Of a stretch of DNA of 64,000 nt, positions 3,268 to 49,500 are shown piece by piece; position 1 is the first letter of the stretch, and each line of letters opens with the position of its first letter. Source of the stretch: Escherichia coli (GTDB lineage Bacteria > Pseudomonadota > Gammaproteobacteria > Enterobacterales > Enterobacteriaceae); assembly GCF_003334405.1 (NCBI RefSeq), contig NZ_QOWM01000012.1; one strand, 5' to 3'. The notes under the pieces were generated by a model that was given only the letters and a program-made list of their open reading frames with translations, was not told the origin of the DNA and made no database searches. The position numbers were made by a program, and so were the translations under genes.

Positions 3268-5294
3268 TCAACGAATACTGATGCCGGAAGCGGCTTTTTT
3301 GGTCACAATCACCGTACAGTCGGTGATATTACCTGCCCGCTGATTGCCTTTATGGAAAACCTTAAACTCCAGAGTGACGCTTCCCCTGCCACTCGGCATA
3401 TCAATAACCGCACTGTAGCTACCGGGAATGGCCCCTTTAGTTTCTCTGGATGCGATTAATACACCGTTTTTGCGAACTTCAAAACCATAACCCGTGTATC
3501 TTGTACCTCCCGGGTTATTACCACTTCCCGGATCGCTATACGCTATTCCGTTAAAGATAATGGGCGGAATAATAATCTGACGGTCAAAGTTATGATCATC
3601 GCTGATGGTGACTGTAACCGTCCCGTTTGGTGTTTCCGTGTTACCCCACGTACCAGCCTGTTTCGGAAATGATTTGGATACAGCTTTAACGAAGTCACCT
3701 CTGACCTGAGTCGCCTCCAGCATGCCCTTAATCGTACAGTTTTCATTTACCGTGACATTGTTGAGCGTCCCGGCGTTCGCATTCACACTGCCACTGATAT
3801 CCGCATTTTTAGCGGTCAGCTTTCCGTCCGGTGTCAGGGAAAATGCCGGTGGATTTCCACCGCTGGTAATGGTGGGGGCCGTCAGGCGTTTCAGGAACAC
3901 GTCGTTCATGAATATCTGATCGCCCTGACCAACAAACATCGGTTTTGTGTTGCCATTCGCAGGATTAACCATCGCAATCCTGTCCGCCGCCAGCAGCACC
4001 TGACTCTGCATGCCGTCAGGGGTGTTCTCAATACCGGCACCAATACCCGCGATATAAAGGCGTCCGTCCTGCATCTGCTGCAGCTTCACAGCCCACATGC
4101 TGTTCAGGTTATTATTTGTATCAACCTGAACCTTCTGTATCTGCTGAATTGCCGCACTCTGGTCTTCCAGTTTCTTATTGACGGTCTGCGTGATTTCATT
4201 GCTGACATCCGTAATGGACGTCCTGATTTCAGCCAGGTCAGGCGCAAGCTGACCGTTATCAATCTGCGTCCACAGCTCCTGAGCCAGATGGGTTTTCCCT
4301 ATCTCGCCTTTGAAAAAATCCAGATAGCCGGATGCATCATCACTCGGCCGACCAACAGCCTCCACGAATGCCGATTTGCCAACGGTGTTCACACTGCGAA
4401 CGTAAAAATAATAATCATGGCCCGGTTTGATATTGATACTGGCGGCTATCCAGTACAGCGCCGTACCAAGATAACGCGCGCTGGTTTCAACCTGCCTGAT
4501 ATCAGCAATCCGTTTTTCCGAGAACCAGAACTCAAACTGTACCGTCGGATCATAAACCGCAAGATGCGGCGTGGCGGTTATCTGAAAATAGCCCGGCGTC
4601 AGCTCAATCCGCGACGGCGCTGCCGGTGCGGCAACAGGCGCTGGCGCAACGTCGGCAGCTTCAGCCCCCATACGCTGTATTCAGCAACGCCGTCAGGAAC
4701 ACGGCTCACTTTCACCTTCACGCCGCCGGTGACGGACTGAACCTCCACGCTGACCGGACTCCCCTGCCCGTCAACCAGGCTTATCAGCGTGGTACCGGAG
4801 GATGGCAGCGTGATTTCACGGTCGAGCGTCAGCGTCCGGGTCTGGCTGTTTACCGCCAGCACGCGCCCGCCGGTGCGGATACCGGCATAGTCATCATCGC
4901 AGATTTCAATGACATCGCCCGGTACATGGCGAAGCCCTTCGGCACCCACGCTGAAGTCCACGGTCTGCGTTTCCAGCAGTTCTGTTTTAATCAGCCACAG
5001 CCCGGCGCGGTGTGCCTGCCCCCGGCTGGTACAGCCAAAGGCATCCATCTTCGTGACGTTACGACCGTAACGGGCAATGGCCTGCGTGTCCTCCACAAGC
5101 TCTGTTGCCGTCTCCCAGCCGTTGTCCGGGTCAATCCAGTTCACCTCAACGGCATTATGGCGGTCCTTCAGGGCGCTGAAGCTGTAGCGGAACGGCGCGT
5201 CATCATCCGGCATCACCACATTACTGCGGTTATAGGTCCACACCTTATCCCGAAGAAAACACCACCAGAGAGACCGCAGGTCCGGACAGAGCAT
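3268..5294 (-). pseudogene. J: Tail tip host-specificity protein J remnant: N-terminally truncated, with an internal out-of-frame deletion near 4640-4680
   Basis: ORF 4599..5294 matches the central region of lambda J (FRYSFSALKDRHNAVEVNWIDP...[14 protein letters not shown]); ORF 3268..4671 matches the J C-terminus ([36 protein letters not shown]...); the two frames overlap at 4599-4671. Confidence 0.8.
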
Positions 5295-7795: not shown

Positions 7796-9592
7796 TTATT
7801 CTTCGGACTGGTCGTCGGTGTGCTGCGGCTCCTGTCGTTTCGTTGCGGCACTACTGCCTCCTTTATCACTGGCCGGATCGGTATCAAATACCAGATCCAG
7901 CTTGCGGTTTTCATCAATTTCGGCCTTGCGCCGACGTTTGACATCATCCGGATTACGACCACCAGCACGTACCCAGTCTGATTCTGTCGCCGCTCCACCA
8001 CGAATCTGGATTTTCCAGGCCTCAGCCTCCTTAACAGGGTCAATCCACGGCATCACTGGTCCGGAATACACCGCGGTATACAGTGAAGAACGGTCAAGAT
8101 CGCGGGGTAGCCTGATAACACCGGATGCCACAGCCTGTTTCAGCCACGCACGATACATCGGGCGGGTGACGGCACCAATAAACCAGTCCTGCAGGATCAG
8201 GTAGCTGGCCGGATCAATTCGCTGGCTCTCCCCGTCGCTGTCACCGCGCAATGACTGCGTGATGTTGTAACGATCAATAATCCAGCGTTCGCCACGGCTG
8301 CCATAGCCCGTTACCTGAACCACAAAACGGCGATGACGTCCCGCCTGCACATCCACTGTCGCCACAAGGAAATTAACGCCATCCGGCACACTGCGGGAAG
8401 GAACTGGCTCTGCCCGCTGCTCAAGCAGTTCACTTTTTCGTTGCTCCATGCTGGCGCGGGGAAGATAAGGTAATCCCCAGTCGGTATTGATAACCGTCTT
8501 GAGTGTTTCTTCACTTCCGGTTGTCTCGTATTCCTGTTCTGCAGTAAGCAGTTTGTAAACGAGTTGCGAGAGTGTCTGGTAAGCAGCTGCCGGACCCTCC
8601 ATCCAGAATGACGCAATACGTGAGCGTCGGGGATCACCATAACGACTGCCATCCGCATTGATGGATTCACCATCCCGCAACCAGACCCCACGTCCGTTCA
8701 GCTCACGTTTGTGTTCAGGCATAATCCGTCCTGAACAGGAAGGACACTGAATATAAGCCGCCTCACTTGCCAGCACGGGATCGGCAATATCACGGAAACC
8801 AGCAACCACATCGCCGCAGGGCTGAAAATACTCACCACAGTGTGGACAGGGCCAGTACCAGCGACGGCGATCGCCACGGTTATAGAGCGACAGTATCCCC
8901 GTGGTTGGTGGAGCCTCATGCGGTGAAGTCCGTCGCCATTTCACATCCTTCACATCCCTGCCGGGGGAACTCTCCACAAGCGTCATACCACTGGACATAA
9001 ATGTTGTGGTACGTTTTGAGGCAAGAGAGAAAGCATCCCCCTCGCCATCAATATCTTCCGGAAAACGGTCATAATCCGTCAGCGCGACGCATTTATAATC
9101 TGATGAGGACATGATATTGACTGACGGCCAGCCGATTTTCAGGTAGTTACCAGCAAGGAATGTTCTGTCATAAACGTTGTTGTCATTTTTGTTCGGACTC
9201 AGGCGACTGACCACTTCCGGGCTGACGCGAAACGTTCTGGCGAGTCGTTTTTTGGAGTGTTCGCGGGCTTTTTCCTCCGTCATCTGAATGATCAGCATAT
9301 CAGCAGGATCGCAAATCACGTTGTAAATCACCCAGCCGTCAATCAGGCCGATAGTCTTGCCGGTTCGTGCCGGGCCAACAAATATCACTGCGTCGTATTC
9401 ACGCGAGGCCAGGCAGTTCATCGGCTCAATAACATACGGTGCCACCAGCGGATCCCACGGGACTGAGTTCCCTGCCCCCATGGGCACCCGCATATACTGA
9501 GCAACGGCATCAGCAACCCGCATTCGTCTCGGTGCGCGAAGGATATAACCTGAATCGGTTCGTGCTGCCTTTGCGGTTTCCTGATTCAGCAT
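7796..9592 (-). CDS. Terminase large subunit, lambda GpA family (the C-terminal ~90 aa may be a fused remnant, see findings)
   Basis: 598-aa ORF with Walker A VGPARTGKT and zinc-finger-like WPCPHCGEYF...CPSCSG, typical of GpA-type terminases. Confidence 0.85.
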   Translation of the reverse strand: MLNQETAKAARTDSGYILRAPRRMRVADAVAQYMRVPMGAGNSVPWDPLVAPYVIEPMNCLASREYDAVIFVGPARTGKTIGLIDGWVIYNVICDPADMLIIQMTEEKAREHSKKRLARTFRVSPEVVSRLSPNKNDNNVYDRTFLAGNYLKIGWPSVNIMSSSDYKCVALTDYDRFPEDIDGEGDAFSLASKRTTTFMSSGMTLVESSPGRDVKDVKWRRTSPHEAPPTTGILSLYNRGDRRRWYWPCPHCGEYFQPCGDVVAGFRDIADPVLASEAAYIQCPSCSGRIMPEHKRELNGRGVWLRDGESINADGSRYGDPRRSRIASFWMEGPAAAYQTLSQLVYKLLTAEQEYETTGSEETLKTVINTDWGLPYLPRASMEQRKSELLEQRAEPVPSRSVPDGVNFLVATVDVQAGRHRRFVVQVTGYGSRGERWIIDRYNITQSLRGDSDGESQRIDPASYLILQDWFIGAVTRPMYRAWLKQAVASGVIRLPRDLDRSSLYTAVYSGPVMPWIDPVKEAEAWKIQIRGGAATESDWVRAGGRNPDDVKRRRKAEIDENRKLDLVFDTDPASDKGGSSAATKRQEPQHTDDQSEE

Positions 9593-13975: not shown

Positions 13976-15427
13976 ATGTCAGACATAAAAAATATACTAA
14001 AATGCATGTACTTTGATAAAAATAGATACTCAAACTTTGGCTCCGTAATTAAAAGTCTAGAGATAAATGGATTTCGAGGAATAAAAAAACTAACATTAAA
14101 TATAAATTTTCCGGTAACTGCAATATCAGGGCTAAACGGCGCTGGGAAAAGCACTCTTGGGCAGTTAGCAATATGCGCATATAAAAAACCAGTTACAGCC
14201 CGTGAATATAAGAGATTATATATTAAAGATTTTTTCCCTGTATCTAAAGCCGATCCAGCCCCTTTCGATAATGACGCCAGTGTCATTTATAAATATGAAA
14301 CAAATGATTCAACGAAAACACAAGATGTGACTGTCACTCGCATAAAGTCTTCTTGGTCTGGATATAAAAGACAACCAGAAAGACACTGTTTTTACATTGG
14401 TTTTACTGTCTATATTCCAAAAGTAGAACGTAGAGATATAAGTGTTTATGGCGGTAAAGACTTTGATTTAACAGAGAGAAGAAGCGTCGACCATTCAGTA
14501 ATATTGAAGATGGCAAAAATAATAGGTCATCCATATGATGATATCGCATTCCAAGGAATTTCTCATAGAGCACGTCGTTCAGAAATTGGTATTGTTGAAA
14601 GACTTGGGTATTCTTATTCTGAAAATAACATGGGGTTTGGCGAAGGAAGAGTTCTTTATACGGTTGATATGCTTGAAACAGCTCCAGAGCAAAGTCTTTT
14701 CGTACTAGAAGAACCAGAAACATCTCTTCATGAAAGCGCACAGTATGAATTTGCAAAATATTTAATGGAAGTATGTCAACGTAGAAAACATCAAATAATA
14801 TTATCAACACACTCAAGTGTGATATTAAATGCTTTACCTCCTGATGCACGAAAATTACTTATTAGAGATCAGACTGGTGTCTATATCAAAGATGGAATTT
14901 CAACAACTCATGTGAGATCAATACTGTCTGATGGGCAGTTTAAAGGGCTGCATATTTGCGTAGAAGACCAGTTTGCAAAAGTTTTACTTAGTGAAGTAAT
15001 TAGAGCAAAGCGGAGAGACATTCTTAAATCCATTCAAATCACTGATATTGGAGATAAAGATGCAGTCCGACAAGCAGTCGAGGTATTCAAGAAAGCAGGC
15101 CTTAATGTTATTGCCGTAAGAGATGCAGATGTTGGAGAAAACATTAAAGATGATTTATTTTCTTTCCCTGGCAATAGGCCACCAGAAGTAGAAGTATTTC
15201 AACATGAGGAAGTAAAAAAATTCCTCTACAAGGAGTATCATATTGATTTTGATTGGTTAATAAAAAAGGAAGGGATTAGTGATCATCACAATTACACTCA
15301 AGCAATTGCTAAAGAAGCAGAATGTGAGGAGGAAGTAATTAGAACTTTAGCAATAAAAAAATATATTGAAATTATTGATGAGAAATTTGACCCACTTATT
15401 ACAAATATAGTAAGCAAAATAAAATAA
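13976..15427 (+). CDS. OLD-family-like ABC ATPase with C-terminal TOPRIM-like nuclease motifs; candidate single-gene anti-phage defence moron
   Basis: 483-aa ORF on the opposite strand to the phage operons, in an AT-rich island; Walker A GLNGAGKST, Walker B/D-loop LFVLEEPETSLH, H-loop LSTHSS, then ICVEDQ and IAVRDADVG (Toprim-like E and DxD); SD aggaaag upstream. Confidence 0.8.
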   Translation: MSDIKNILKCMYFDKNRYSNFGSVIKSLEINGFRGIKKLTLNINFPVTAISGLNGAGKSTLGQLAICAYKKPVTAREYKRLYIKDFFPVSKADPAPFDNDASVIYKYETNDSTKTQDVTVTRIKSSWSGYKRQPERHCFYIGFTVYIPKVERRDISVYGGKDFDLTERRSVDHSVILKMAKIIGHPYDDIAFQGISHRARRSEIGIVERLGYSYSENNMGFGEGRVLYTVDMLETAPEQSLFVLEEPETSLHESAQYEFAKYLMEVCQRRKHQIILSTHSSVILNALPPDARKLLIRDQTGVYIKDGISTTHVRSILSDGQFKGLHICVEDQFAKVLLSEVIRAKRRDILKSIQITDIGDKDAVRQAVEVFKKAGLNVIAVRDADVGENIKDDLFSFPGNRPPEVEVFQHEEVKKFLYKEYHIDFDWLIKKEGISDHHNYTQAIAKEAECEEEVIRTLAIKKYIEIIDEKFDPLITNIVSKIK

Positions 15428-22699: not shown

Positions 22700-22739
22700 T
22701 TCTTTTCCTTTTGCGTTGTTGGGGATAACCAGATTAACC

Positions 22740-23200
22740 GAATCCTTGTTGTTGGGGAATAACCAGGTCCACCTCGCCTGATGTGGCTAAAAGCAGGCAC
22801 ATAACAGCTAAGTATTTTTAACCAGAGAGAATCCTTAGCGTTGTGGTGAATGCGGCTCAGCGCACGCGGGTTAAGGTTGAGGCTGACAGTCGACCTTCTG
22901 TGGATACCCACCCGTCTGGTGTGCAACCTTCGCCAGGCACCGGGAGGCACCCGGCACCACAACTTTATGCTGTGTGTAGTCCTGGAGGTACCAGTTTGTA
23001 CCCTTGCTTCCGGCTGGTACCGTCCTTTTTACAAAACAGAGAAGAGCATCACCGGACGACGGGCTCATAACCCAATCCATCCGGGCGGCTGCCACCGCAG
23101 GTGTTCTTCTCTGTTTTGTGGAGAAACTAACCGCCCCTACGGGGGCATTCATGGAAATGTAATTGACTCAATAATCGCCGGACGGTGAGGGCTTCCTTTT
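22740..23200. other. GC-rich ORF-free segment, candidate structured non-coding RNA or decayed gene
   Basis: All overlapping ORFs are Arg/Pro-rich and look non-coding; long-range complementarity GTTGTGGTG...CACCACAAC and local stem GGTACCAG...CTGGTACC. Confidence 0.3.
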
Positions 23201-23216
23201 ACCCGAATTCAGCGCG

Positions 23217-23780
23217 GTGCAGCGCATATACGTGGAGAGCAAAATGTCATTTATTAAAACTTTTTCCGGGAAGCATTTTTATTATGACAGGATAAATAAA
23301 GACGACATCGATATTAACGATATCGCGGTTTCCCTTTCAAATATCTGTCGCTTTGCCGGTCATCTTTCGCACTTCTACAGCGTCGCCCAACATGCGGTTC
23401 TTTGCAGCCAGCTGGTGCCGCAGGAATTTGCTTTTGAAGCGTTAATGCATGATGCAACAGAAGCGTATTGCCAGGACATTCCCGCACCACTGAAACGCCT
23501 TCTTCCTGACTATAAACAAATGGAAGAAAAAATAGACGCCGTAATCCGTGAGAAATACGGGTTACCCCCAGTTATGAGTACGCCCGTGAAATATGCCGAT
23601 CTCATCATGCTGGCAACCGAACGCCGCGATCTCGGGCTTGATGATGGCTCTTTCTGGCCTGTACTGGAAGGTATCCCGGCAACAGAGATGTTCAACGTGA
23701 TTCCACTGGCACCGGGCCATGCCTACGGGATGTTTATGGAACGCTTTAACGAGTTATCGGAGTTACGCAAATGCGCATGA
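23217..23780 (+). CDS. HD-domain phosphohydrolase (YfdR-like 5'-nucleotidase)
   Basis: 187-aa ORF with HD signature FAGHLSHFYSVAQHAVL...MHDATEAY; probable start MSFIKTF at 23244. Confidence 0.7.
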   Translation: MQRIYVESKMSFIKTFSGKHFYYDRINKDDIDINDIAVSLSNICRFAGHLSHFYSVAQHAVLCSQLVPQEFAFEALMHDATEAYCQDIPAPLKRLLPDYKQMEEKIDAVIREKYGLPPVMSTPVKYADLIMLATERRDLGLDDGSFWPVLEGIPATEMFNVIPLAPGHAYGMFMERFNELSELRKCA

Positions 23781-24133
23781 ATGTTTTCGAAATGGAAGGG
23801 TTTCTTCGTGGGAGATGTGTACCGCGAGATCTGAAAGTAAATGAAACAGATGCTGAATACCTGGTGCGTAAATTCGATGAGCTTGAAGCTAAATGTGCAG
23901 CACAGGAAAACAAAGTAATACCAGTGTCAACTGAACTGCCACCAGCAAATGAAAGTGTTTTGTTATTCGATGCTAACGGAGAAGGCTGGCTAATTGGCTG
24001 GCGTTCTCTCTGGTACACCTGGGGACAAAAAGAAACCGGAGAATGGCAGTGGACATTTCAGGTCGGGGACCTTGAAAACGTCAATATCACTCACTGGGCA
24101 GTAATGCCAAAAGCACCGGAGGCTGGAGCATAA
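23771..24133 (+). CDS. Hypothetical phage protein (DUF551-like)
   Basis: 120-aa ORF with Trp-rich C-terminus WLIGWRSLWYTWGQKETGEWQW. Confidence 0.5.
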   Translation: MRMNVFEMEGFLRGRCVPRDLKVNETDAEYLVRKFDELEAKCAAQENKVIPVSTELPPANESVLLFDANGEGWLIGWRSLWYTWGQKETGEWQWTFQVGDLENVNITHWAVMPKAPEAGA

Positions 24134-24438
24134 TGACCACTTTTACCGACAAAGAACTGATTAAAGAAATTAAAGAGCGTATCAGCAGCCTTGACGTGCG
24201 AGACGATATTGAGCGCCGTGCTTATGAAATCGCACTCCTATCTCTGGAAGTAGAACCAGATGAACGCGAAGCTTATGAATTATTCATGGAAAAGCGTTTC
24301 GGTGACTTAGTAGATCGTCGGAGAGCAAAAAACGGCGATAACGAATACATGGCATGGGATATGACTCTCGGTTGGATCGTCTGGCAGCAACGAGCTGGTA
24401 TCCATTTTTCAACAATGTCACAGCAAGAGGTGAAATAA
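24133..24438 (+). CDS. Hypothetical phage protein
   Basis: 101-aa ORF, translationally coupled to its neighbours. Confidence 0.5.
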   Translation: MTTFTDKELIKEIKERISSLDVRDDIERRAYEIALLSLEVEPDEREAYELFMEKRFGDLVDRRRAKNGDNEYMAWDMTLGWIVWQQRAGIHFSTMSQQEVK

Positions 24439-24788
24439 TGGAGCCATACAGCCTCACACTCGATGAGGCCTGTCATTTTCTCAAGATATCCAGACCGACT
24501 GCCATTAACTGGATACGCACAGGGCGTCTTCAGGCAACACGCAAAGATCCCACTAAGAATAAATCTCCTTACCTCACAACACGACAAGCCTGCATTGCGG
24601 CTCTTCAGTCTCCGCTGCATACTGTCCAGGTGAGCGCGGGTGATGGCATAACAGAGGAAAGAAAATGTCACTCTTCCGCAGAGGTGAAATATGGTACGCC
24701 AGTTTCACATTGCCGAACGGTAAAAGATTTAAACAGTCTCTTGGAACAAAGGACAAAAGGCAGGCGACAGAACTCCATGACAAGCTAA
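24438..24788 (+). CDS. xis: Excisionase (P22 Xis-like, long form)
   Basis: Starts [37 protein letters not shown] (HTH); ~117 aa, overlapping the int start as in P22. Confidence 0.6.
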
Positions 24789-25828
24789 AGGCTGAAGCAT
24801 GGCGGGTCAGCAAACTTGGTGAAATACCTGATATAACGTTCGAGGAAGCGTGTGTCAGGTGGCTTGAAGAGAAAGCATATAAAAAATCACTGGACGATGA
24901 CAAAAGCCGGATCGGATTCTGGCTTCAACATTTCGCAGGAATGCAACTAAGAGACATTACTGAATCAAAAATTTATTCAGCAATGCAGAAAATGACGAAC
25001 CGGCGTCATGAGGAAAACTGGAAACTCAGGGCAGAAGCATGCAGAAAAAAAGGGAAACCTGTTCCAGAATACACGCCAAAACCAGCGTCCGTTGCAACGA
25101 AGGCTACGCATCTTTCATTTATAAAGGCCCTACTAAGAGCCGCAGAGCGTGAATGGAAAATGCTGGATAAGGCACCAATTATTAAAGTGCCTCAACCAAA
25201 GAATAAACGGATCCGCTGGCTGGAGCCCCATGAAGCACAAAGGCTGATTGATGAATGTCCGGAGCCATTAAAGTCTGTTGTTGAATTTGCACTGGCAACA
25301 GGCTTAAGACGCTCGAACATCATCAACCTTGAATGGCAACAAATAGATATGCAGCGCCGGGTGGCATGGATAAACCCGGAAGAGAGTAAATCAAACCGCG
25401 CAATCGGCGTTGCGCTGAATGATACTGCATGTCGCGTTTTGAAAAAACAAATCGGGAATCATCACCGTTGGGTATTTGTGTACAAGGAAAGCTGTACCAA
25501 ACCAGACGGAACGAAAGCGCCAACAGTAAGGAAGATGCGGTATGACGCAAACACAGCCTGGAAAGCGGCGCTGAGACGGGCTGGTATTGATGATTTCAGA
25601 TTTCACGACTTGAGACACACCTGGGCAAGTTGGCTGGTTCAAGCCGGAGTCCCGTTGTCAGTGTTACAGGAAATGGGAGGCTGGGAGTCTATCGAAATGG
25701 TTCGTCGATATGCTCACCTTGCACCTAATCACCTTACCGAACACGCACGGCAAATAGACTCGATCCTGAACCCATCGGTCCCAAATTCGTCCCAGTCAAA
25801 AAATAAGGAAGGTACTAATGATGTGTAA
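24665..25828 (+). CDS. int: Tyrosine integrase (P22 Int-like), thrW-specific
   Basis: 387-aa [37 protein letters not shown]...; catalytic region [39 protein letters not shown]; adjacent to the tRNA-Thr 3' end. Confidence 0.9.
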
Positions 25829-25841
25829 CTTATTGATTTAA

Positions 25842-25917
25842 ATGGTGCCGATAATAGGAGTCGAACCTACGACCTTCGCATTACGAATGCGCTGCTCTAC
25901 CAACTGAGCTATATCGG
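25842..25917 (-). tRNA. thrW: tRNA-Thr (anticodon CGU)
   Basis: Minus-strand read GCCGATATAGCTCAGTTGGTAGAGCAGCGCATTCGTAATGCGAAGGTCGTAGGTTCGACTCCTATTATCGGCACCA; coordinates +/-1. Confidence 0.9.
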
Positions 25918-26032
25918 CCCTGAAAGGACATGTTCACGAACGTGAATCACGGTGGACAAGGTTAAAACTAACCGGGCGATGCGTCAATGGCCTTGTGAAT
26001 CAAATGGCTACTTTTGCATCACCCGGTTTTAT

Positions 26033-27286
26033 TTACGCACGAATGGTGTAATCACCAATGCCGATCCACTTGTAAGTGGTCAGTGCTTCCAGCCCCATTG
26101 GGCCACGCGCGTGGAGTTTTTGTGTGCTTACCGCCACTTCCGCACCCAGACCAAACTGGCCGCCGTCGGTAAAACGCGTAGAGGCGTTAACGTAAACAGC
26201 GGACGAATCCACTTCGTTAACAAAACGCTGGGCGTTGCGCATATCGCGGGTCAGGATCGCATCGGAGTGTTGTGTGCCGTGTTCACGAATATGGGCGATG
26301 GCATCGTCAAGATCGCTGACGATTTTGACGTTCAAATCTAATGACAGAAACTCATCGTCATACTCTTCGGCTTTAACAGCAACCACCTTCGCAGGGCCTG
26401 CCTGCAACTGCGCCAGTGCAGCTGCATCTGCGTGTAATGTCACGCCGCTTTCCGCCATTTGTTTGCTTAATGCGGGCAGGAAGCTATCGGCGATGTTTTT
26501 ATTCACCAGCAACGTTTCAACCGTATTACATGTGCTCGGACGCTGAGTTTTCGCGTTGACGATCACTTTTAATGCTTCAGCGATCTCTACACTTTCATCA
26601 ACGTAAATATGGCATACGCCTATACCACCTGTGATCACCGGGATTGTCGACTGTTCACGGCACAGTTTATGCAAACCAGCGCCACCACGCGGGATCAGCA
26701 TGTCGATGTATTTATCCATACGCAGCATTTCACTGACCAGCGCACGGTCAGGATTATCAATCGCCTGCACGGCACCCGCCGGTAAGCCGCAGGATTTCAG
26801 GGCGTCCTGAATCACCGCCACCGTTGCAGCGTTAGTGCGACACGTTTCTTTGCCACCGCGCAGGATCACCGCATTACCGGTTTTCAGGCACAGCGAAGCG
26901 ACATCAACCGTCACGTTCGGGCGCGCTTCATAAATCACGCCAATAACCCCCAGCGGTACGCGACGACGCTCAAGACGCAGGCCGCTGTCCAGTACGCCGC
27001 CATCGATTACCTGCCCCACCGGATCGGCGAGGTTGCACACCTGACGTACATCGTCGGCAATGCCTTTCAGCCGTGCGGGCGTCAGTGCCAGACGGTCAAG
27101 CATCGCTTCGCTAAGGCCATTGGCTCGCGCGTCAGCAACATCCTGGGCGTTAGCGTTGAGGATGATTTCGCTTTGTGCTTCCAGTTCATCGGCGATTTTT
27201 TCCAGCACGCGATTTTTTTCGCGGCTGGAGAGTTGCGCTAATTTATACGAGGCTTGCTTCGCGGCAATGCCCATTTGTTCCAGCAT
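26033..27286 (-). CDS. proA: Gamma-glutamyl phosphate reductase
   Basis: 417-aa ORF with the conserved ProA sequence. Confidence 0.95.
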
Positions 27287-27297
27287 CAGCCTGCTCC

Positions 27298-28401
27298 TTA
27301 ACGGGTAATCATGTCATCACGGTGAACGGCAACCGGGCCGTATTCATATCCCAGTATTGCATCAATTTCTTGCGAGTGGTGTCCGGCAATACGGCGTAAT
27401 GCATCGCTGTTGTAACGACTGACGCCGTGGGCGATATCGCGGCCTTCGAGGTTGCAAATGCGGATGACTTCACCACGCGAGAAATTGCCAGTCACGCTTT
27501 TAATGCCTTTCGGCAACAGGGAGCTGCCGCGTTCCAGAATGGCGGCAGTTGCCCCTTCATCTACCGTGATTTCACCCGCCGGCGGCGCACCGAAAATCCA
27601 GCGTTTACGGTTTTCAAGCGGAGTCGCCTGGGCATGGAACAGCGTACCGACGGAAATGCCTTCCATCACATCACCAATAACGCCCGGCTTGCTGCCCGCG
27701 GCAATAATGGTGTCGATACCCGCACGGCAAGCCACGTCAGCGGCCTGCAATTTGGTACTCATGCCGCCAGTTCCGAGGCCTGAAACGCTGTCACCGGCAA
27801 TCGCGCGCAGTGCGTCATCAATGCCGTAAACATCTTTAATCAGTTCTGCCTGCGGATTGCTGCGCGGGTCAGCGGTATACAAACCTTTTTGATCGGTCAG
27901 CAGCAACAGTTTATCGGCACCCGCAAGAATCGCCGCCAGCGCAGAAAGGTTATCGTTATCGCCGACCTTAATCTCTGCCGTAGCGACAGCATCGTTCTCA
28001 TTGATTACCGGAACGATATTGTTATCGAGCAACGCTCGCAGGGTGTCGCGGGCGTTCAGGAAGCGTTCACGGTCTTCCATATCAGCACGGGTCAGCAGCA
28101 TTTGCCCGACGTGAATGCCATAAATCGAAAACAGCTGTTCCCACAGTTGAATCAGTCGACTCTGCCCTACCGCCGCCAGCAGTTGTTTCGAGGCGATGGT
28201 CGCTGGCAGTTCCGGGTAACCCAGGTGCTCACGTCCGGCGGCGATCGCGCCCGACGTCACAATAACAATCCGATGCCCGGCGGCATGTAACTGCGCGCAC
28301 TGGCGAACAAGTTCAACGATATGGGCACGGTTCAGACGGCGCGATCCGCCTGTTAGCACACTGGTGCCGAGTTTTACCACCAGCGTCTGGCTGTCACTCA
28401 T
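27298..28401 (-). CDS. proB: Glutamate 5-kinase
   Basis: ORF track gives a 396-aa form from 28488; the conserved ProB start is [12 protein letters not shown] at ~28401. Confidence 0.9.
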
Positions 28402-28589
28402 GATTCTCTGCCATTCAATTTTAGGAAAAATGATATCAAACGAACGTTTTAGCAGGACTGTCGTCGGTTGCCAACCATCTGCGAGCAAAGCATGGCGTTT
28501 TGTTGCGCGGGATCAGCAAGCCTAGCGGCAGTTGTTTACGCTTTTATTACAGATTTAATAAATTACCACATTTTAAGAATATTATTAAT

Positions 28590-43484: not shown

Positions 43485-43590
43485 CTGCCTGATGCGCTGC
43501 GCTTATCAGGCCTACAAGGTTTCTGCAATATATTGAATTTGCAATATTTTGTAGGCCGGATAAGGCGTTCACGCCGCATCCGGCAAGTCC
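43485..43590. repeat. REP elements between lafB and lafA
   Basis: cctgatgcgctgcgcttatcaggcctac ... gtaggccggataaggcgttcacgccgcatccggcaag. Confidence 0.7.

Positions 43591-49274: not shown

Positions 49275-49500
<226 letters not shown>

Follow-up and report, generated by a model that had tools for sequence, protein, structure and literature searches.

Positions 24438-25918 of the analysed stretch of Escherichia coli DNA (64,000 nucleotides, hereafter the window) very probably contain the junction between host DNA and the int-proximal end of a lambdoid prophage, integrated at the 3′ 46 bp of thrW by a heterobivalent integrase of the P22/SfI-SfII-SfIV-SfV type. Modules of this kind are common, well described and already known. 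What is added here are the precise relatives of the module, the anatomy of its att site, evidence that the prophage is defective, and an explanation of why the far att copy is not visible.

Organization of the int/xis module

The genes of the module and the ORFs that precede them are encoded on the plus strand of the window as follows.

23217-23780, plus strand: yfdR-like 5′-deoxynucleotidase ORF, named from RefSeq annotation of collinear prophages
23771-24133, plus strand: 120-aa ORF between the yfdR-like and yfdT-like ORFs
24133-24438, plus strand: yfdT-like ORF, named from RefSeq annotation of collinear prophages
24438-24788, plus strand: xis, 116-aa excisionase (recombination directionality factor) of P22 type
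24665-25828, plus strand: int, 387-aa tyrosine integrase of P22/Sf type

The three ORFs upstream of xis (23217-24438) are arranged end-to-end and in the same orientation. The ATG of xis shares bases with the TAA of the yfdT-like ORF (TAATG) and is preceded by the Shine-Dalgarno sequence GAGGTG. The int gene begins within xis, 227 nt from the xis start and in the +2 frame with respect to it, which results in an overlap of 124 nt; the ATG of int is preceded by GAGGA. Both genes are free of frameshifts and stops, and int ends 14 bp from the 3′ end of a tRNA-Thr(CGT) gene. From this arrangement, we infer that yfdR-orf-yfdT-xis-int form one leftward operon. Scanning for consensus promoters and terminators around the module disclosed sites no more numerous than in shuffled sequence, and the regulation suggested for the module is therefore inferential. 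Two minus-strand ORFs which extend across xis and int (24273-24671 and 24574-24903) were unsupported and were taken as spurious.

Start sites of both genes vary among existing annotations. The RefSeq/PGAP integrase is 372 aa long and begins at TTG 24710, 15 codons downstream of ATG 24665. The 15 codons upstream of this TTG specify residues of which 14 are identical to P22 Int, and they are accompanied by a good Shine-Dalgarno sequence; RefSeq often sets the int start too far downstream by these 15 codons. For xis, RefSeq in some genomes has a 144-aa HTH protein whose start, at 24354, lies 28 codons too early, in place of the P22-like ORF of 116 aa.

Integrase and excisionase

Int aligns with P22 Int in full length and without gaps, with 347 of 387 residues identical (90%). 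Only one difference is located in the arm-binding N-terminus (residues 1-41). The Pfam domain Phage_integrase (PF00589) covers residues 184-355 (E=6e-47), and alignment to the HP1 integrase places the catalytic motifs ATGLR (R215), HDLRH (H314, R317, H318), GGW (W340), and RRY (Y349). Xis is also similar to its P22 counterpart throughout its length (101/116 identical residues, 87%; E=3e-74). Its N-terminus matches Pfam HTH_17 (E=1e-7), a match to the NCBIfam ‘excise’ domain (E=1e-5) is below the cutoff of that model, and its calculated pI is 9.7. Sequence search of PDB with Xis gave chance matches only. In the segment where the two genes overlap, comparison with P22 shows 1 of 41 amino acids changed in the Int frame and 8 of 41 in the Xis frame, indicating that the Int N-terminus is the more constrained reading frame.

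A previous sequence-only reading of this DNA proposed a P22-type int/xis/att module in thrW within a mosaic prophage, based on the N-terminus and overall sequence of the integrase and on a long excisionase that overlaps int as in P22. The alignments bear out each of these points, and the comparison with P22 int/xis and attP which that reading suggested as a check yielded full-length protein matches and an invariant 46-bp core. The excisionase is of P22-type length as proposed, with 116 aa in place of the estimated ~117. The ORF positions within the range given for the module (24438-25917) are correct, while its end is one base short, as both ARAGORN and Rfam extend the tRNA to 25918.

The att site and thrW

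Features of the junction and of the adjacent host DNA are listed below.

25778-25794, plus strand: two GTCCCA motifs, 11 bp apart (starts at 25778 and 25789), inside the int 3′ end
25843-25888, no strand assigned: att core of 46 bp, with the sequence shared by the P22 and SfIV attP cores and the 3′ end of thrW (46 nt)
25843-25918, minus strand: thrW, tRNA-Thr(CGT), full length (ARAGORN; Rfam tRNA, 71.8 bits)
26033-27286, minus strand: proA, host flank (ORF and RefSeq annotation of collinear genomes)
27298-28488, minus strand: proB, host flank (ORF and RefSeq annotation of collinear genomes)

The tRNA gene is identified as thrW because tRNA-Thr(CGT) was matched at about 262.0-262.2 kb in a chromosome of K-12 size (H117). 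In matching genomes RefSeq annotates tRNA-Thr adjoining proA. The proA-proB pair represents conserved neighbours of thrW, and phoE comes after proB. Over the module range, Rfam detected the tRNA only.

The core reads TGGTGCCGATAATAGGAGTCGAACCTACGACCTTCGCATTACGAAT, and one exact copy was found in the 64-kb window (chance expectation in shuffles 0.00). Homology to phages ends at 25888, and the switch from phage to host falls at 25888/25889. Up to the left edge of the core, the window corresponds to the int end of phage attP. Beyond the right edge it is host DNA, with the 5′ half of thrW, where phage attP runs on as TATAAGAA.... The far core copy in strain C288 is a mirror image, with host DNA on the left and an SfIV-type second arm on the right. 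As judged from these flanks, the core shows the hybrid-site pattern expected of attP x attB recombination which leaves thrW in full length. The 3′ part of thrW is regenerated by the att core.

Measured from the core start, the two GTCCCA motifs are located at -65 and -54, as they are in attP of P22 and SfIV. On the same scale, P22 attP has the motif at -65, -54, +100, +154, and +165, the last three being on the other arm. In total, GTCCCA occurs 9 times on both strands of the 64-kb window. The pair is suggested as candidate arm-type Int binding sites of the int-proximal arm. Likely Xis sites are 10-bp-spaced ATGCAAAG-type repeats on the far arm, outside the window.

Integration very probably took place by site-specific recombination between phage attP and the 3′ 46 bp of thrW. 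Following the P22/lambda paradigm, Int would bind the core and the GTCCCA arm sites, and the reaction would require host IHF in addition to Int. Excision would also need the 116-aa Xis, which would bind and bend the other arm at the far junction. After repressor loss, the leftward early operon yfdR-orf-yfdT-xis-int would be transcribed, with xis and int at its tail, again by analogy with P22 and lambda.

Relationship to Sf phages and P22

Nucleotide identity over window positions 24438-25888 is 99.6% with SfIV, 99.2% with SfV, 98.7% with SfII, and 97.3% with SfI, and it amounts to 97.9% with the E. coli phage phi458. P22 and P22-like Salmonella phages are ~80% identical over the module, and their records annotate int, xis, and attP there; the P22-group relatives of the module also include ST64T, ST104, L, and ES18. 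According to these identities, the nearest relatives are the Shigella flexneri serotype-converting phages, and not P22. SfI, SfII, SfIV, and SfV have a common Int and Xis and a 46-bp att and integrate in thrW, and SfIV is an inducible phage (PMC3851460). Integration in thrW has also been described for P22, ST64T, and ST104 (PMC2629481).

The likeness to Sf phages includes the identical 46-bp att and the same target, thrW. In SfIV it extends to gp30-32, which correspond to the yfdT-like, 120-aa and yfdR-like ORFs upstream of xis (99% identity). Differences are in the host, which is Shigella there and E. coli here, and in the late genes, of myovirus type in Sf phages and of lambda-like siphovirus type in the window. 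In addition, a 1.29-kb stretch of SfIV with the DUF2303/yfdQ gene is absent from the window. It is missing at ~22700-23217, with the junction at 23133-23144. At this gap RefSeq marks a frameshifted hypothetical ORF in relatives, and the longer yfdQ-containing version is present in many E. coli genomes. Sf phages also carry a gtrA-gtrB-gtr(type) O-antigen cassette beside attP on the side opposite to int, a side that lies outside the window.

In P22, xis (1501-1851) and int (1728-2891; both in L004) are 351 and 1164 nt long, and int starts 227 nt into xis. The protein lengths of 387 and 116 aa, the 124-nt overlap, the 46-bp core, the GTCCCA offsets, and the target thrW are all the same as in the window. 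Nucleotide divergence is 13% in the part occupied by xis only, 8% in the overlap, and 23% (mostly synonymous) in the part occupied by int only. P22 differs in having unrelated genes upstream of xis, namely eaC/eaG and the aI RNA, and in being a podovirus with headful packaging.

The far end of the prophage

Position 1 of the window is the start of draft contig QOWM01000012.1 (GCA_003334405.1) and is placed inside a prophage tail-fibre gene. This contig is identical to the window over its initial 19.6 kb (100%). Because the contig breaks inside the prophage and the rest is on another contig, the far att junction is outside reach. Three related prophages that share this int each contain a second exact 46-bp core, at core-to-core distances of 43.7 kb in C288, 41.3 kb in SC476, and 40.7 kb in FORC_081. 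The duplicated thrW 3′ segment, whose absence the sequence-only reading named as refuting, is present in these three relatives. In related prophages the far core is followed by the SfIV-type second arm, the sequence expected after a far 46-bp core being TATAAGAATCCG....

In the E. coli genome collection, no record covers the full prophage, the best one reaching 90% in 10 pieces. An exact 60-mer scan gave no match in GTDB species representatives. The same scan of IMG/VR revealed 13 loci, none of them collinear with the window, and a core copy in L015 only, 6.4 kb further left than the counterpart of window position 1.

In E. coli relatives, the slot at the far att copy, which is the gtrABC position in Sf phages and P22, holds defence-type cargo. 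Retron Ec48 was observed in SC476, SMODS+SLATT in C288, a TrlF-like ATPase in FORC_081, and Avs2 in JX21CE35; the cargo loci are L001 41318-44149, L002 3872-8023, L020 6885-10046, and L003 14133-19016. E. coli JX21CE35 also harbours a second, divergent P22-like integrase pseudogene (L003 12955-14178), with 65% nucleotide identity to the window int. It abuts the far 46-bp att copy and a CP4-6-like element comes next, an arrangement which indicates that several elements occupy thrW in tandem.

Defective state of the prophage

When compared with the collinear prophage of C288, the prophage shows three deletions, of about 0.4, 9.1, and 2.0 kb, amounting to about 11.5 kb in total.

4628-4634, 5246-5250, and 8202-8205: deletion junctions, with microhomology of 4-7 bp

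The ~0.4 kb deletion is located inside J, and the ~9.1 kb deletion extends from mid-J through tail genes I, K, L, M, H, T, G, V, U, and Z. Through the ~2.0 kb deletion, the large terminase gene has lost its end and the portal gene its start, and a small gene is missing as well. All three junctions are matched at 100% identity in an independent Logan assembly (L023), and another (L024) has the 2-kb deletion only. The occurrence of all three deletions in one assembly and of a single one in the other shows that they are real and arose in sequence. From its predicted gene content, the prophage is classified as defective: it would be unable to form virions on its own, and at most could excise.

The module could be an intact-looking but inert relic, in which the far att or its arm/Xis sites have been lost, the remnant is locked in the chromosome, and int and xis persist only for want of time to decay. 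In addition to the deletions, this reading is favoured by the presence of the deletion lineage in several samples, which suggests stable vertical inheritance, and by the far end, which is unseen because the contig ends. Intact int and xis, 99.6% identical to those of inducible SfIV (PMC3851460), intact catalytic motifs of Int, and the retention of both att copies in related prophages argue against it, and we consider an inert module possible but doubtful.

The tail-less prophage lineage was recovered identically from independent samples. It is highly improbable that this tail-less and portal-truncated lineage, with its pristine int/xis/att and its cargo (the HEC-04-like ATPase and a DNA methyltransferase), represents a selected, still-excisable element. 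As opposed to a product of neutral decay, such an element might be a remnant that is mobilisable with the aid of a helper, or it might be a defence island using P22-type excision.

Prophage mosaicism

The prophage spans the left part of the window up to the core.

1-25888, no strand assigned: prophage body, running off the left window edge, composed of Sf/e14-like early and lambda-like late regions

Between 21742 and 25888 the window is 98-99% identical to SfIV. Further blocks of the early region match SfIV from ~15.9 kb and SfV from ~12.1 kb, and RefSeq names in this region are of e14/CPS-53 type (for example ymfK, ymfL, yfdN, yfdR, and yfdT). The late region is 96-97% identical to lambda-like siphoviruses such as vB_EcoS-569R4, Ayreon, cdtI, and mEp460. 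Direct nucleotide homology to lambda is found in the tail fibre, lom region, J, and Rz only, 3.7 kb in total. The int-early block is joined to the lambda-like siphovirus late module in the window and in C288, and in SC476 and FORC_081 the partner of this block is an SfV-like myovirus late module. These comparisons place the mosaic joint between the Sf/e14-like early and the lambda-like late regions, and not at int/xis. The mosaic nature of the element, put forward in the sequence-only reading, is consistent with this; its picture of the module as an isolated insert in a lambda/phage-21-like phage is not, as the match to Sf phages continues from 21742 leftward in blocks.

The association of one int-early block with two unrelated late modules, together with identity to P22 that begins exactly at the xis start and stops at the core, could also mean that int/xis/att are a separately exchanged cassette in an otherwise lambda/phage-21-like genome. 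We find this rather unlikely. The boundary at xis holds for the comparison with P22 only, and the identity to Sf phages continues past xis, so the unit exchanged in this lineage is the early region and not int/xis alone.

The Int/Xis/attP system of lambda follows the same logic as the module: in both, a heterobivalent tyrosine integrase is paired with a small basic excisionase, and the overlapping xis and int genes close a leftward operon beside attP. They differ in that the two integrases are without useful sequence similarity (22% identity over 152 aa, E=0.008), that lambda Xis is 72 aa long with a 23-nt overlap of its gene with int, and that the core here is a thrW sequence. Lambda does not target a tRNA gene but attB, located between gal and bio, and E. 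coli K-12 has a different element, CP4-6, at thrW. An integrase of lambda, P4, or CP4-6 type with merely coincidental adjacency to thrW, for which different integrases annotated beside tRNA-Thr in H114 and H115 might be quoted, has virtually no likelihood and is refuted by the full-length 90% identity to P22 Int, by the match of the core and arm motifs to P22 attP, and by the weak similarity to lambda Int.

A 483-aa ATPase of AAA/ABC type is encoded on the plus strand at 13976-15427, in a low-GC stretch of the prophage (35-40% GC, about 13-16 kb). Its place in the prophage is that of a moron, with the Q antiterminator on one side and the DNA methyltransferase and lysis genes on the other. Its best match among PADLOC families is the candidate defence family HEC-04 (E=4e-47), with weaker matches to the ATPase-Toprim, AriA, and GajA families, and it is likely a prophage-borne anti-phage gene.

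Outside the prophage, the window contains an intact Flag-2 (lateral flagella) cluster at about 37950-64000, 100% identical to that of E. coli FORC_081. Many strains, for example SC476, have lost Flag-2 through a deletion bounded by the flhA remnant and lafU. Inside the cluster, Rfam matched naRNA4 (49347-49424) and ES036 (43508-43550).

Distribution and significance

To assess prevalence, a probe of 701 bp that covers the end of int, the core, and thrW was used, and matches were counted at ≥80% coverage. The int-thrW junction was detected in 1279 of 5426 complete E. coli genomes, about a quarter. Together with GI-thrW described in ST131 (PMC4134206), this frequency supports the earlier statement that thrW is an integration hotspot.

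The module marks the right-hand boundary of the prophage at thrW, and thrW stays intact. In closely related E. coli, the late module combined with the one int-early block is of siphovirus or of myovirus type, which is textbook lambdoid mosaicism. The main use of these results is in correct annotation, in which the prophage should be labelled as defective.
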